From: a virus
Strand: one strand, 5' to 3'
Length of the DNA stretch: 5,008 nt
IMG/VR virus record: IMGVR_UViG_3300013195_000001
Coordinates: 1 to 5,008 of that record
Part shown: piece by piece, positions 1-5,008 of the stretch
Layout: the number at the start of each line of letters is the position of its first letter
How positions within the stretch are numbered: the first letter of the stretch is position 1
The notes under the pieces: model-generated
Databases searched by the model: none
The model's input: only the letters and a program-made list of their open reading frames with translations
Told to the model about the DNA's origin: nothing
Made by a program: the position numbers and the translations under genes

Positions 1-107
1 CATTGATTGTAACACTTTCAACTTCTCCCTGTAATTTAACATCTGTTGTCTGAGCTCCATAAGTAACTTCTAAATCACCTATACCGTAACCATAATTGCC
101 AATACTA
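1..107. repeat. Terminal redundancy, copy 1 (identical to 4902..5008); signature of a circular contig
   Basis: Base-by-base comparison shows 1..107 equals 4902..5008 exactly. The repeat lies inside the capsid ORF and preserves its frame. Confidence 0.95.
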
Positions 108-847: not shown

Positions 848-1758
848 AATGTTTCATTGTTGTTAACTAAATCTCTATGACGGATTAAGTCGCTATCCTT
901 AGCGTTTATATATTCGAGTAATTTACCGTCATAATATTTTTCTAATTTTTCCTCGAATGCTTTCATTTTTTTATCTAAATGTTCTTCGTAGCTTTTTCTA
1001 CTTAACTCAATTCTATCTTCTTTATTTATAAATAATCGTCTCAAATATGCTTTTGGTAATCTTCGAACTCTTCCATTCATGTCTCGTACCTCTAAACTTT
1101 CTGATTCAATATGGTGCGTTCCATAATTCTGTAAATATGCATTACCTATAATCGGTTTTTTGCTCATTAAACTAAATGGGGGAGTACGTCTATCTGTTTT
1201 TCTGTTAAACTGTTTAAACATATATTTTGTAACATAATTTATACTTGAACTAGTTACAGTACCTACATCAGCAAAACCCTTTTTCCATTGATTTTGTAAT
1301 GGTGCTATGTTGCCAATATCCATATTAAACAAGATAAGATGATAATGAGGACGACGAGTTTTGCTGCCATATTCACCGACTGCATAATAGCGTAATGGTT
1401 TGGCTCTAAACTTGACTTCCTTTTTTGATATGTTGAGCGTTTTACTGACATATTTTACATGATCATTTCGCAATCTCTTTATATAATCTTGAACATGTTT
1501 TTTAAATAATGTTTGATAACCTTGCTTAGTACGTGGTATGTGTAAATCATTGTACGTTAATGTTATAAAAAATGCGCTATCGCTAAATAAATACTCATGT
1601 TCTAATCTTAGACTCCATTCTGATCTGCGTTTTTTTTGACATGGTAAACACTTGCCACATGGTACTCTGAAATCTAAATCCTTAAGCTTAATACTATTTG
1701 CGCATGATGTACCAATAATATCCGGTACAAATCCGTACTCTGAATCTACTATCCTCAT
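844..1758 (-). CDS. VP4: Rolling-circle replication initiation protein (HUH endonuclease; Microviridae VP4 / phiX174 gene A family)
   Basis: 304-aa ORF with all three RCR motifs in order: motif I 'FFITLTY', motif II HUH 'RPHYHLILF', motif III 'INYVTKYMFK' with two tyrosines spaced YxxxY (compare YVAKY in phiX174 A). An N-terminal Cys cluster 'CGKCLPC' is typical of microvirus Reps. The stop TGA (846..844) overlaps the capsid ATG (847..845) as ATGA. Confidence 0.93.
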   Translation of the reverse strand: MRIVDSEYGFVPDIIGTSCANSIKLKDLDFRVPCGKCLPCQKKRRSEWSLRLEHEYLFSDSAFFITLTYNDLHIPRTKQGYQTLFKKHVQDYIKRLRNDHVKYVSKTLNISKKEVKFRAKPLRYYAVGEYGSKTRRPHYHLILFNMDIGNIAPLQNQWKKGFADVGTVTSSSINYVTKYMFKQFNRKTDRRTPPFSLMSKKPIIGNAYLQNYGTHHIESESLEVRDMNGRVRRLPKAYLRRLFINKEDRIELSRKSYEEHLDKKMKAFEEKLEKYYDGKLLEYINAKDSDLIRHRDLVNNNETL

Positions 1759-2844: not shown

Positions 2845-3300
2845 TCAAGCAAACGCGGTAATATCGCAGTTGCTATTTTCATGATTAATTTTTGTTTCAT
2901 TGTTTATTTCTTTAATATTAATTTTGTCTTCGCCTCGCCATAATAATGACTCAACAATTTCAGTAGTTTGTCTACTATTGTGTATCATTGTTGGAATCTC
3001 ATCGTTCTCCTGGTATATTCCTACTCCGATGCACCCTTGTACATCGCCTCCACGATTAGCCGGATGTATACGAATTCCATATCTATTAGGAACTCCCATA
3101 ATTTCGAGTGTTTTAGTTTTAAACTTAGGACTAAGAGACCAACGCATACTATAAGTGCCAGCTTGTATACGTTTTTCATAATTTTCTACAGTGGAGAATT
3201 TTAGAACTCCATGATTTCTAGTTGTTATTTTTAGTACTCCAAACAAGTTGTTATAATTTCCTCTTGTTAATCTTTGTAGTGTTACATCAGTAATTATCAT
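2845..3300 (-). CDS. Accessory protein with a DUF5675-like core (conserved His...Cys signature); function unknown, candidate peptidoglycan-active or lysis enzyme
   Basis: 151-aa ORF on the same strand, and the first gene after the intergenic region. The segment 'FGVLKI...FSTVEN....IQAGTYSMRWSLSPKFKTKTLEIMGVPNRYGIRIHPANRGGDVQGCIGVG' matches my recollection of the DUF5675 pattern (G.L.....C.TlE.....IP.G.Y......SP.F......l..VPgr.gI.IH.gN...dt.GCI.vG) found mainly in Bacteroidota genomes and their phages. This was recognised from memory and not searched. Confidence 0.7.
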   Translation of the reverse strand: MIITDVTLQRLTRGNYNNLFGVLKITTRNHGVLKFSTVENYEKRIQAGTYSMRWSLSPKFKTKTLEIMGVPNRYGIRIHPANRGGDVQGCIGVGIYQENDEIPTMIHNSRQTTEIVESLLWRGEDKINIKEINNETKINHENSNCDITAFA

Positions 3301-3388
3301 ATTCGTAAATTGTTATAATGTTATTATGTTAATTATTCTCTGATTTTCACCATAATATATATTGTGTTAAATACATATTTTTCAGCTA

Positions 3389-3406
3389 TATCAAAGAACT
3401 TTGATA
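3389..3406. promoter_or_regulatory. Near-perfect 18-bp palindrome (8-bp arms TATCAAAG / CTTTGATA with a 2-nt centre); candidate operator, Rep-binding or promoter-associated site
   Basis: Read directly from the sequence: tatcaaag-aa-ctttgata, about 90 nt upstream (coding sense) of the DUF5675-like gene's ATG. The arm contains TTGATA(T), overlapping the nick-motif core found at 3501..3510. Confidence 0.4.
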
Positions 3407-3428
3407 AATATACAATTTTTTTTTTACT

Positions 3429-3446
3429 CCCCTACCCTAGTAGGGG
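3429..3446. repeat. GC-rich hairpin (7-bp stem CCCCTAC/GTAGGGG, 4-nt loop), flanked by T-runs on the window plus strand
   Basis: Read directly from the sequence: T10-act-CCCCTAC-ccta-GTAGGGG-ttattttgttttttttt. It looks like a terminator only in the plus-strand (non-coding) sense. On the coding-sense strand it is flanked by A-runs. Confidence 0.6.
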
Positions 3447-3473
3447 TTATTTTGTTTTTTTTTGGTTGTTTTT

Positions 3474-3490
3474 GTGACTTTTTTAGTCAC
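3474..3490. repeat. Short hairpin (6-bp stem GTGACT/AGTCAC, T5/A5 loop)
   Basis: Read directly from the sequence: gtgact-ttttt-agtcac, immediately adjacent to the 3491..3524 hairpin. Confidence 0.6.
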
Positions 3491-3524
3491 TAGGACATAC
3501 AATATCAAGTCGTTGTATGTCCTA
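3491..3524 (-). promoter_or_regulatory. Candidate viral-strand (rolling-circle) replication origin: a 12-bp stem-loop presenting a phiX174-like nick-site motif
   Basis: The minus strand reads 5'-TAGGACATACAA-CGACTTGATA-TTGTATGTCCTA-3', a perfect 12-bp stem with a 10-nt loop. The 10-mer ACTTGATATT (reverse complement of plus-strand 3501..3510 'aatatcaagt') is identical to the core of the phiX174 origin CAACTTG^ATATTAATAAC as I recall it. It lies on the coding-sense strand, the strand expected to be nicked. Confidence 0.5.
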
Positions 3525-3526
3525 AT

Positions 3527-3550
3527 AAAAAAAGGGGGTTATTAACCCCC
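3527..3550 (-). terminator. Rho-independent terminator ending the capsid / ORF72 / VP3-like transcription unit
   Basis: The minus strand reads TTTTTTA-GGGGGTTA-A-TAACCCCC-TTTTTTT-ATTAGG. This is a GC-rich stem (effectively about 6 bp with a 5-nt loop) followed by a T7 run, about 25 nt downstream of the VP3-like TAG stop (3577..3575). T-tracts flank it only in the minus-strand sense. Confidence 0.8.
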
Positions 3551-3574
3551 TAAAAAACTAACATAATAAACTAA

Positions 3575-3967: not shown

Positions 3968-4169
3968 TTTCTTCTTTGTTTAATATTGACATTAAATTTG
4001 TGTTTAATCGTTGTACCTCTTTATAAAGAAGTGCTAATGCTGAACCATTTTCATAAACCATTTCTTCTATAGAATGATCTTTTATATACTGTTCTTTGTG
4101 TTCTTTCCATTTTGTCTGAAAATCTTTTACTTCTTTTTTACTTGGTTTTTCTGATTTAACTACTTTCAT
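3951..4169 (-). CDS. Hypothetical 72-aa protein (ORFan), K/E-rich and predicted helical
   Basis: The ORF sits tightly between the capsid stop (4-nt gap: TAA-aatt-ATG) and the VP3-like gene, overlapping its start by 17 nt. It has the same strand and similar composition to its neighbours. I recognise no motif and see no TM segment. Confidence 0.6.
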   Translation of the reverse strand: MKVVKSEKPSKKEVKDFQTKWKEHKEQYIKDHSIEEMVYENGSALALLYKEVQRLNTNLMSILNKEENGKEN

Positions 4170-4173
4170 AATT

Positions 4174-5008
4174 TTAATTTAATGTTGGATTACTGTGATA
4201 TGGCATTGGTCTCAATGCATCTACTTTATGGTATAATGATATCCATAACTTATGTTCTGTACTGTCTTGTATTGCAAATATTCTATCATCTGGATTACAT
4301 TCAATAAATGATTGATTTAATAATGGTGCTTGACTAAAACGTCTTGATAACTCCCAATGTGCTAAAGTATCTCTAAAATCACCAGCGATACGATTTTGAG
4401 AATATTTGTACTCTGCATATCTCTGTTGATAACCAAATATTGTATCATCACTTGTTTTATTCCCCTGGATAAACAATTCTTTTGTATAAACTTCTTGCTC
4501 TCCTAAATTTGCAAACTGTGGAAAATAATGATCAAACTTGTCAAACTTTTGCCAAAATCTTGATAAACCTTGTACATAACTAGTTTTAGGTATTACCCTT
4601 GCTAAACCTAAAATAATACCATGTTCATTGAATGATTGTTGGAATCCAATTCCTTCTCCTAATCCTAAAGCATGACCGGTCATGTCTCCTTGTGGTCTAT
4701 CTGTTGAGCCTTCACTTGCATATGTACTTAATACTTCACTAATCATAATGGGCGTTCGACCACCACCCAAATATTGGGGGACTTGTACTGTATAATCTGG
4801 TATTCTTTCGCCAAATATTGCAAATATTTGTTCTCTATAACGTGAGCCAGCACGTGCCATTAATTCTAACCATTGTTGCAGAGCTGATGCTTTACGTAAC
4901 TCATTGATTGTAACACTTTCAACTTCTCCCTGTAATTTAACATCTGTTGTCTGAGCTCCATAAGTAACTTCTAAATCACCTATACCGTAACCATAATTGC
5001 CAATACTA
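4174..5008 (-). CDS. VP1: Major capsid protein, C-terminal portion. Bases 4902..5008 duplicate 1..107. The true ORF is join(847..1, 4901..4174) on the minus strand.
   Basis: The ORF-track entry 4174..4860 starts at an internal Met. The frame stays open upstream through 5008: ...SIGNYGYGIGDLEVTYGAQTTDVKLQGEVESVTINELRKASALQQWLELMARAGSRYREQIFAIFGERIPDYTVQVPQYLGGG.... The motif 'INELR.A.ALQ.WLE..AR.GSRY.E.....FG' is the conserved microvirus capsid signature. The stop is TAA at 4176..4174. Confidence 0.95.
   Translation of the reverse strand, partial: SIGNYGYGIGDLEVTYGAQTTDVKLQGEVESVTINELRKASALQQWLELMARAGSRYREQIFAIFGERIPDYTVQVPQYLGGGRTPIMISEVLSTYASEGSTDRPQGDMTGHALGLGEGIGFQQSFNEHGIILGLARVIPKTSYVQGLSRFWQKFDKFDHYFPQFANLGEQEVYTKELFIQGNKTSDDTIFGYQQRYAEYKYSQNRIAGDFRDTLAHWELSRRFSQAPLLNQSFIECNPDDRIFAIQDSTEHKLWISLYHKVDALRPMPYHSNPTLN
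4902..5008. repeat. Terminal redundancy, copy 2 (identical to 1..107)
   Basis: As for copy 1. The window ends while the match is still running, as expected for an assembly overlap rather than a biological repeat. Confidence 0.95.

Follow-up and report, generated by a model that had tools for sequence, protein, structure and literature searches.

An intergenic hairpin with a phiX174-type nick motif in its loop as the probable rolling-circle origin of a marine microvirus

Our results showed that the hairpin at positions 3491-3524 of the window, the whole 5,008-nt stretch of viral DNA analyzed here, is probably the viral-strand origin of rolling-circle replication, with a loop that would be nicked by a two-tyrosine HUH Rep. 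From sequence comparisons, we give a probability of about 0.8 to this interpretation, in which the element is homologous to the phiX174 origin but is presented by a hairpin and lies between genes. A sequence-only reading of the same DNA had proposed a candidate rolling-circle origin at this place; the comparative evidence supports that proposal, and we infer cleavage by Rep.

The window carries a 107-nt direct repeat at its two ends and was therefore taken as a complete circular marine microvirus genome of 4901 nt. All of its genes are on the minus strand, so that the ACTTG^ATATT motif is on the coding, viral-sense strand, which is the correct strand, as had been claimed. In viral-sense order, the first gene encodes the major capsid protein (Phage_F; intact, 524 codons, spanning the contig junction) and is followed by ORF72 and then ORF130. 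A non-coding region of 274 nt (3574-3301) separates ORF130 from the gene for a DUF5675 protein, which comes directly after it; next are the genes for a pilot protein (VP2-like PHROGs) and for a VP4-like Rep of 304 aa (844-1758), all on the minus strand. The sequence-only reading had placed the hairpin in a non-coding region that it called the only large one, and the gap at 3301-3574 is indeed the only one of such size; as a whole it is unusually structured (z = -6.9). The hairpin is intergenic and about 1.7 kb away from the Rep gene. The same virus was present in independent assemblies from several marine metagenome runs of PRJNA278075, and the element was identical in three independent assemblies, which shows that it is not an assembly artefact.

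The only Pfam match of the Rep was PF23343 (E = 1.8e-17), and it also matched PHROG 942, "replication initiation protein" (E = 1.7e-71). No Pfam match to a plasmid Rep family (Rep_1 included) or to a helicase domain was found, and no Rep match above 37% identity was found in GenBank phages. The HUH motif HYH is encoded by codons 138-140 (window 1339-1347, minus strand) and the catalytic motif Y175-V-T-K-Y179 by window positions 1222-1236 (minus strand). The corresponding motifs are HYHLILF and Y175-V-T-K-Y179 in the Rep of the window and HFHAVHF and Y343-V-A-K-Y347 in the phiX174 A protein, so the two-tyrosine YV.KY motif that the sequence-only reading had described as common to both proteins is present in each. 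The cognate Rep of phiX174 thus has HUH and YxxKY, as the Rep of the window does. The two differ in size (304 aa vs. 513 aa in phiX174 A), and their sequence similarity is weak (blastp, E = 4e-5). The Rep of the window also has a region with four cysteines at its N terminus.

On the plus strand, positions 3491-3524 read TAGGACATACAA TATCAAGTCG TTGTATGTCCTA. The reverse complement, on the minus strand, reads TAGGACATACAA CGACTTGATA TTGTATGTCCTA and folds into a perfect stem of 12 bp (TAGGACATACAA / TTGTATGTCCTA) around the 10-nt loop CGACTTGATA (3503-3512). This agrees with the 12 perfect base pairs counted before. The predicted Rep cut, G^A, separates the complements of 3506 and 3505, again in agreement with the earlier coordinates. 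The hairpin is the strongest one, and its single-stranded DNA fold had an energy of -9.5 kcal/mol (z = -7.2). The window has a single copy of the 10-mer ACTTGATATT, at 3501-3510 of the minus strand.

A match of this kind might be a coincidence in an AT-rich genome, with a hairpin that has no specific function, and chance alone would indeed give the shorter motif CTTGATA about once (0.97) in each genome. The exact 10-mer, however, is expected only 0.04 times per genome on both strands (5000 dinucleotide-preserving shuffles). The naive estimate of the sequence-only reading had been about 0.01, roughly four times lower, and its caveat that the AT bias would raise the figure was right. Perfect hairpins of at least 12 bp appeared in 3 of 300 shuffles (1%).

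The phiX174 record NC_001422 reads ...CCCCCAACTTGATATTAATAACACTATAGACCAC...; the origin is CAACTTG^ATATTAATAAC, with an annotated rep_origin at A4306, inside gene A, and the nick is G4305^A4306. The origin core and the cut after the G, as given in the earlier reading, are confirmed by this record. The loop CGACTTGATA shares 9 of 10 positions with the phiX174 decamer CAACTTGATA, and over 10 consecutive nt across the phiX174 nick site the match of ACTTGATATT to phiX174 is exact. The origin of phiX174 and other Bullavirinae (CAACTTG^ATATTAATAACACTATAGACCAC, used by the gene A protein) shares the core ACTTG^ATAT with the window, on the viral strand in both cases. The 30-nt stretch CGACTTGATATTGTATGTCCTAGTGACTAA (3483-3512, minus strand) is colinear with the 30-nt viral-strand origin of phiX174, CAACTTGATATTAATAACACTATAGACCAC (positions -7 to +23), and 18 of the 30 positions are identical. 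Downstream, outside the 10-mer, the window and phiX174 agree at only 7 of 18 positions, and the homology of the 3' half therefore rests mainly on the register of a TGAC box (3486-3489, minus strand; +17 to +20 from the predicted nick), a candidate Rep-binding determinant.

The two origins differ in their setting and presentation. The phiX174 origin is inside the Rep gene and the origin of the window is intergenic. In the window, the recognition sequence is the loop and the equivalent of the spacer is the 3' arm of the 12-bp hairpin, which is not simply AT-rich; phiX174 has an AT-rich spacer, a 3' determinant ending in ...GACCAC, and no hairpin above background. Its best stem has 5 pairs (background mean 4.9), in accordance with the earlier statement that the phiX174 origin is within gene A and is not presented by a hairpin. 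A pairing of GTGCTC with GACCAC in phiX174 also reaches 5 pairs, not above background, and was left uninterpreted. The phiX174 A protein does not need a hairpin. The intragenic location and the lack of a hairpin are features of the Bullavirinae rather than of the mechanism. The element of the window has the motif, the strand and the Rep of a phiX174-type origin, and the 30-nt organization may be kept in part.

We aligned 87 unique elements, anchored on CTTG, in a position matrix. The conserved positions were C-7, A-5, CTTG, A+1, T+2, T+4, A+6, A+15, T+17, G+18, A+19, C+20, and A+25, a block from about -7 to +25, nearly the same span as the classical 30-nt origin of phiX174 (-7 to +23). GAC started at +18 in 41 of the 87 elements and at +19 in 14, even though the 3' arm ended anywhere from 10 to 17 nt after the nick. 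Over all sense CTTG sites, origin sites included, the background frequency of GAC at +18 was 6%. GAC likewise starts at +18 in phiX174 (+18 to +20). That the TGAC box (+17 to +20) keeps this register argues for homology rather than coincidence. A saturation-mutagenesis preprint described detrimental synonymous mutations in gene A, from Q107 to D115, that colocalize with the phiX174 plus-strand origin. By codon arithmetic (gene A start at 3981), Q107-D115 runs from CAA through GAC, and D115 is the phiX174 GAC at +18.

To follow the element in close relatives we used 20 IMG/VR contigs with Rep proteins 63-91% identical by best segment. The element was on the Rep-sense strand in every locus of this set that covers the origin region. 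The layout was constant: a varying terminator hairpin and T-run, then AGGACATACTA-CGACTTGATA-TAGTATGTCCT, then AGTGAC, which is often part of a small second hairpin. The flanks and the terminator varied freely and the element was nearly invariant. In an alignment of 16 sequences, 7 of the 12 stem pairs showed no variation, non-pairing was almost confined to two pairs at either end of the stem, outermost and next to the loop, and two pairs had independently undergone a compensatory double change: the window itself has AU in place of UA, and locus L009 has UA in place of GC. The loop core ACTTGAT was invariant in the close clade. Most relatives read ACTTGATATA, and the conserved core is therefore (G)ACTTGATAT / GACTTGATAT and not the full 10-mer; the motif of the earlier reading stands as an exact match to phiX174 but is longer than what the relatives conserve, (G)ACTTGATAT. 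We also scored every 30-mer of the genome against 19 relatives with a Rep identity of at most 70%. The 30-mer at 3484-3513 ranked third in the genome (0.875; mean 0.68, sd 0.07); the other 11 of the top 12 are coding. The top-ranked 30-mer consisted of the codons for INYVTKYMFK, which includes the catalytic tyrosines of Rep.

A set of distant relatives was retrieved with a Rep profile, down to about 30% Rep identity. Their stem sequences were entirely different yet complementary, and the loop kept ACTTG(A/T). Locus L024 has the 5' arm GGCCATATATA, the loop CGACTTGATA, and the 3' arm and flank ATATATGGCC; the same loop is found in L027 between GGTCATACAA and TTGTATGACC (3' arm and flank). The loop is CACTTGAT in L031 (5' arm GGCCCTTATAAC, 3' arm and flank GTTATAAGGGCC), CACATACTTGATATA in L037 (5' arm GATAACACTAA, 3' arm TTAGTGTTATC, then TGACAC), and CTTGATGA in L039/L040 (5' arm CCCACTCTTAATA, 3' arm TATTATGAGTGGG, then TGACAC). 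A variant loop, CACTTGTC, occurs in L036. The loci without the element are non-circular contigs from which the origin region is apparently missing. L042 was left out; it has a weak Rep match and no capsid similarity, and is probably not a microvirus. Covariation of the stem around a conserved loop, which had been suggested as the thing to look for in relatives, was clearly present. Since variation in the close clade is small, the evidence for covariation comes mostly from the distant relatives, which were found by a hairpin-based scan. The circularity of such a scan is addressed by the antisense and sequence-only controls described below.

These controls were done with a gokushovirus-like set of 80 genomes gathered through the capsid protein, 77 of which were long enough to test. 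A hairpin of at least 9 bp with CTTG in the sense-strand loop was found in 60 of the 77 genomes, vs. 11 with CAAG (antisense control); at a threshold of at least 11 bp, the counts were 28 and 2. The CTTG hairpin ranked first in strength, alone or jointly, in 31 genomes, vs. 1 for the antisense control, and in 17 of the 77 genomes the CTTG-loop hairpin was below the 9-bp threshold. CTTG was the top loop 4-mer among the 189 strong hairpins of these genomes (49, vs. 3 for the reverse complement). When CTTG-N17/18-GAC sites were picked by sequence alone, 59% of those in sense and 3% of those in antisense were in hairpins of at least 9 bp; for all sense CTTG sites the value was 6%.

In cultured gokushoviruses the element was also recognizable. 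The strongest hairpin of the Chp2 genome is ctagcgtataacag-TCTACTTGAT-ctgttatacgctag (2904-2941), between VP3 and ORF8, and that of phiMH2K is at 3296-3335 (loop ...CTACTTGTTG...); both have ACTTG in the loop. Chp1 has a 9-bp hairpin (2750-2777) with the weaker variant CCTCTTGGCT (CTCTTGG). In these three phages the hairpin is on the coding strand in non-coding DNA. SpV4 has a hairpin of this ACTTG kind at 512-544, with 10 pairs and the loop ATTACTTGTTATA followed by TTGACGAC, which shares the rank of strongest; the record annotates the capsid gene only. TGA is read as a sense codon in SpV4. The element was also present in a Ciona microvirus, Dulem virus 138, and an Eel River pequenovirus. In five large microvirus genomes, of 5.6-6.6 kb, no canonical element was detected, and the element is widespread, not universal, among microviruses. 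The motif and the hairpin are thus kept together on one strand in dozens of divergent genomes with covarying stems. A chance match in a functionless hairpin is extremely improbable, and the comparative data effectively refute it.

If the hairpin is the viral-strand origin, it could work as follows. On the supercoiled RF, the 12-bp inverted repeat would extrude or breathe, which would leave the loop CGACTTG^ATA single-stranded. The 304-aa HUH Rep would dock through two elements, the 3' arm and TGAC (+17 to +20), the latter a putative binding site. Y175 or Y179 would then cut G^A (complements of 3506/3505), so that Rep would be held on the 5' phosphate and the 3'-OH would prime the host polymerase. 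After one round, the origin would be regenerated on the displaced strand, refold into the hairpin and be cut by the second tyrosine; strand transfer would resolve the first Rep linkage and release a circular viral strand. The alternating use of the tyrosines is proposed by analogy with the phiX174 A protein.

There is also a broader interpretation, to which we would give an even chance. The hairpin with a (Y)ACTTG^(A/T) loop and TGAC at +17 to +20 may be the ancestral and widespread plus origin of the non-bullavirus microviruses (Gokushovirinae, pequenoviruses, and the marine clade), and the phiX174 origin may be a derived, hairpin-less remnant, made up of the loop, the 3' arm and the TGAC box, whose 5' arm was lost as gene A took in the origin. 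If so, there would be a simple rule to locate the origin and the nick in many uncultured microviruses, and the fixed register would point to a distance-measuring Rep-DNA contact, not previously described. In the literature searched, an experimentally defined replication origin is found among microviruses only for phiX174-like phages, in which it atypically lies within the Rep gene. The searchable literature gave us no hairpin-presented nick site for any microvirus outside the bullaviruses, gokushoviruses included, and an older mention is possible.

Microviruses rank with the most abundant ssDNA phages of gut and marine viromes. For the uncultured majority of them, the element gives a testable origin model and a natural zero coordinate for genome annotation. 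It is also a possible substrate for Rep nicking assays and a possible minimal cis element for replicons or synthetic genomes. In evolutionary terms, it is a bridge between the phiX174 origin, the origins of pC194-type plasmids, and the hairpin origins typical of other HUH replicons. We rate the significance as moderate. The mechanism is the one expected for a HUH Rep; the location of the site, its presentation and the breadth of its sharing are new.

Other known origins have parts of this arrangement. The pC194 / pUB110 family has the same heptamer CTTGATA in the origin, and the pC194 origin, used with RepH, reads TTCTTTCTTATCTTGATAATAAGGG. Nicking in pC194-type plasmids occurs at CTTG^ATA, and a link to phiX174 has historically been made. 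A short inverted repeat, CTTAT/ATAAG, surrounds the motif in pC194, and it is plausible that the site is presented in a loop there too. The plasmids differ from the window in the Rep family and the flanks, they have no TGAC at +18, and their stem is much shorter.

CRESS-DNA virus origins have the nonanucleotide NANTATT^AC in a hairpin loop, and their Rep has one catalytic tyrosine and a fused SF3 helicase. A HUH nick site in the loop of a conserved intergenic hairpin is an architecture that the window has in common with CRESS-DNA viruses and with pT181 / pMV158 plasmids. However, the loop CGACTTGATA is unrelated to the NANTATTAC-like loop of CRESS-DNA viruses, and the Rep of the window has two tyrosines and no helicase domain, in contrast with the single tyrosine and SF3 helicase of the CRESS-DNA Rep. 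The likeness to CRESS-DNA and plasmid HUH origins that the sequence-only reading had pointed to therefore holds for the architecture; the nonanucleotide, the single-tyrosine Rep and the helicase are absent, and the link in sequence is with phiX174 and pC194-type origins. We regard the resemblance to CRESS-DNA viruses, pT181 and pMV158 as a shared solution rather than close kinship.

The hairpin could instead be, or could also be, the origin of the complementary (minus) strand, where host RNA polymerase, primase or PriA would prime the ssDNA for its conversion to RF; we consider this unlikely. Hairpins that prime the complementary strand occur in phiX174 (F-G region), G4, Ff phages, and plasmid ssoA, and in Ff phages the origins of both strands are adjacent. 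The structure in the window is stable and specific to one strand, and it has been conserved in non-coding DNA on the strand that is packaged; a conserved hairpin on the viral strand is what a complementary-strand origin is expected to look like too. However, host priming signals are not expected to keep the loop of the phiX174 Rep site and the TGAC register across hosts as diverse as Chlamydia, Bdellovibrio, Spiroplasma, and marine bacteria, and two neighboring hairpins, at 3474-3490 and 3429-3447, are available for a priming role.

Conserved intergenic hairpins of small microviruses have been read in this way. The tiny reekeekee- and roodoodoo-microviruses have conserved intergenic hairpins with compensatory stem changes and invariant loops (PMC9865509). 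The authors discussed these hairpins as possible signals for complementary-strand initiation and left the function open (PMC9865509); we saw no connection made there with a Rep nick site. By description, they resemble the element of the window.

The first of the two neighbors, GTGACTAAAAAAGTCAC (3474-3490, minus strand), is immediately 3' of the origin hairpin and includes the TGAC box. Its DNA fold had an energy of -4.0 kcal/mol (z = -7.0), and it is kept as GTGAC..GTCAC or ATGAC..GTCAT in many relatives and lost in others. It may be involved in Rep binding or be part of a complementary-strand origin. The second, CCCCTACTAGGGTAGGGG (3429-3447, minus strand), is also intergenic; it is kept in the closest relatives only and is a candidate complementary-strand origin element.

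It is very unlikely, in our view, that the element at 3491-3524 is a site for another protein or process (transcription termination or attenuation, packaging, or dif-like XerC/D recombination for lysogeny). The hairpin comes directly after a transcription unit, as a terminator would. However, it has no T-run after the stem, only 4 of its 12 stem pairs are G-C, it was not called by the terminator scan, a canonical terminator adjoins it, and its loop is conserved, which is not the case for the loop sequences of terminators. A known RNA element is not indicated either, as the hairpin had no Rfam family match. Packaging in phiX174 is coupled to the origin through the A protein, with no separate signal, which counts against a packaging site. 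A dif-like site has some support in the dif motifs found in non-coding regions of some gokushoviruses. The dif sites of temperate gokushoviruses are 28 bp long, with 11-bp arms and a 6-bp spacer, like the host dif. The element has 12-bp arms and a 10-nt loop, and its arms vary freely between lineages while the loop is fixed; a dif/Xer site was rejected on these grounds.

The terminator scan found a Rho-independent terminator-like hairpin, AGGGGGTTAATAACCCCCT, followed by a T7 run (3526-3551; hairpin 3533-3551, minus strand), just upstream of the probable viral-strand origin. It closes the capsid-ORF72-ORF130 transcription unit, and at this place relatives have a GC hairpin and T-run whose sequence varies freely. 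Promoter-like hexamer pairs are located upstream of the DUF5675-VP2-Rep genes (3296-3370, minus strand); a consensus scan, which gives weak evidence, found 4 such sites where 2.4 are expected. With the terminator upstream and the promoter-like sites downstream, the probable origin sits between a terminator and the next promoter-like sequence, and this placement fits an origin that is kept clear of transcription.

The Rep of the marine microvirus, a two-tyrosine HUH protein of 304 aa, carries four cysteines (C19, C34, C37 and C40) within codons 19 to 40 (window 1639-1704), a stretch that includes the sequence CGKCLPC. All four were invariant among Reps down to 55% identity. This invariance suggests that the N-terminus holds a candidate zinc-binding module, and the putative module might contact DNA, for example at the TGAC box next to the origin hairpin.

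In some relatives, CGACTTGATA occurred a second time, downstream of the origin hairpin at a distance of about 45 nt. This additional copy was found in the related loci L016 (2116-2125) and L023 (3661-3670), and in a degenerate form in a third, L014, at about 1685. The second copy is followed by an A-run, and has neither a hairpin nor a TGAC at +18; it may represent a relic, serve as a secondary site of termination or act as a regulatory decoy.

The canonical origin element was absent from all five large microvirus genomes sampled, so their origin may be a different one or may lie on another motif. In one of these larger viruses (MG945767, 5.6 kb), the strongest of the hairpins in the intergenic region preceding Rep was at 5591-5634; its sense-strand loop reads CAAGG, which corresponds to CCTTG on the antisense strand.

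The intergenic region of the window also contains long A-runs on the minus strand, at 3448-3473 and 3419-3428 (A9 and A10 in viral sense). These runs lie between the hairpins of the region, and their position is conserved among close relatives. They may serve as bendable or easily melted spacers, or be part of a complementary-strand origin.

The first 107 nt of the window (1-107) are repeated directly at its end (4902-5008), which indicates that the genome in the window is circular and 4901 nt long. The capsid gene spans the junction and is intact, with 524 codons. Among the related contigs, L007 (IMGVR_UViG_3300047382_000383; 9496 nt) had the origin element twice, at 2535 and 7328, that is, 4793 nt apart. 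This contig is a head-to-tail dimer of a genome unit of roughly 4.8 kb, which reflects either concatenation during assembly or a replication intermediate. In several other contigs, either the end falls at or close to the origin hairpin or the whole intergenic region is missing (L003, end 4766-4792; L010, end; L011, L022, L032, L033 and L035), which suggests that assemblies are prone to break in this hairpin-rich and homopolymer-rich stretch.

No recognizable lysis gene is present in this microvirus. A 151-aa protein encoded on the minus strand (window 2845-3300) matched DUF5675 (E = 3e-18), and also gave a weak, sub-threshold match to a Tlde1 L,D-transpeptidase-like domain. This protein, in which the motif IHPANRGGDVQGCIGVG is present, may be a cell wall-acting (lysis) enzyme.
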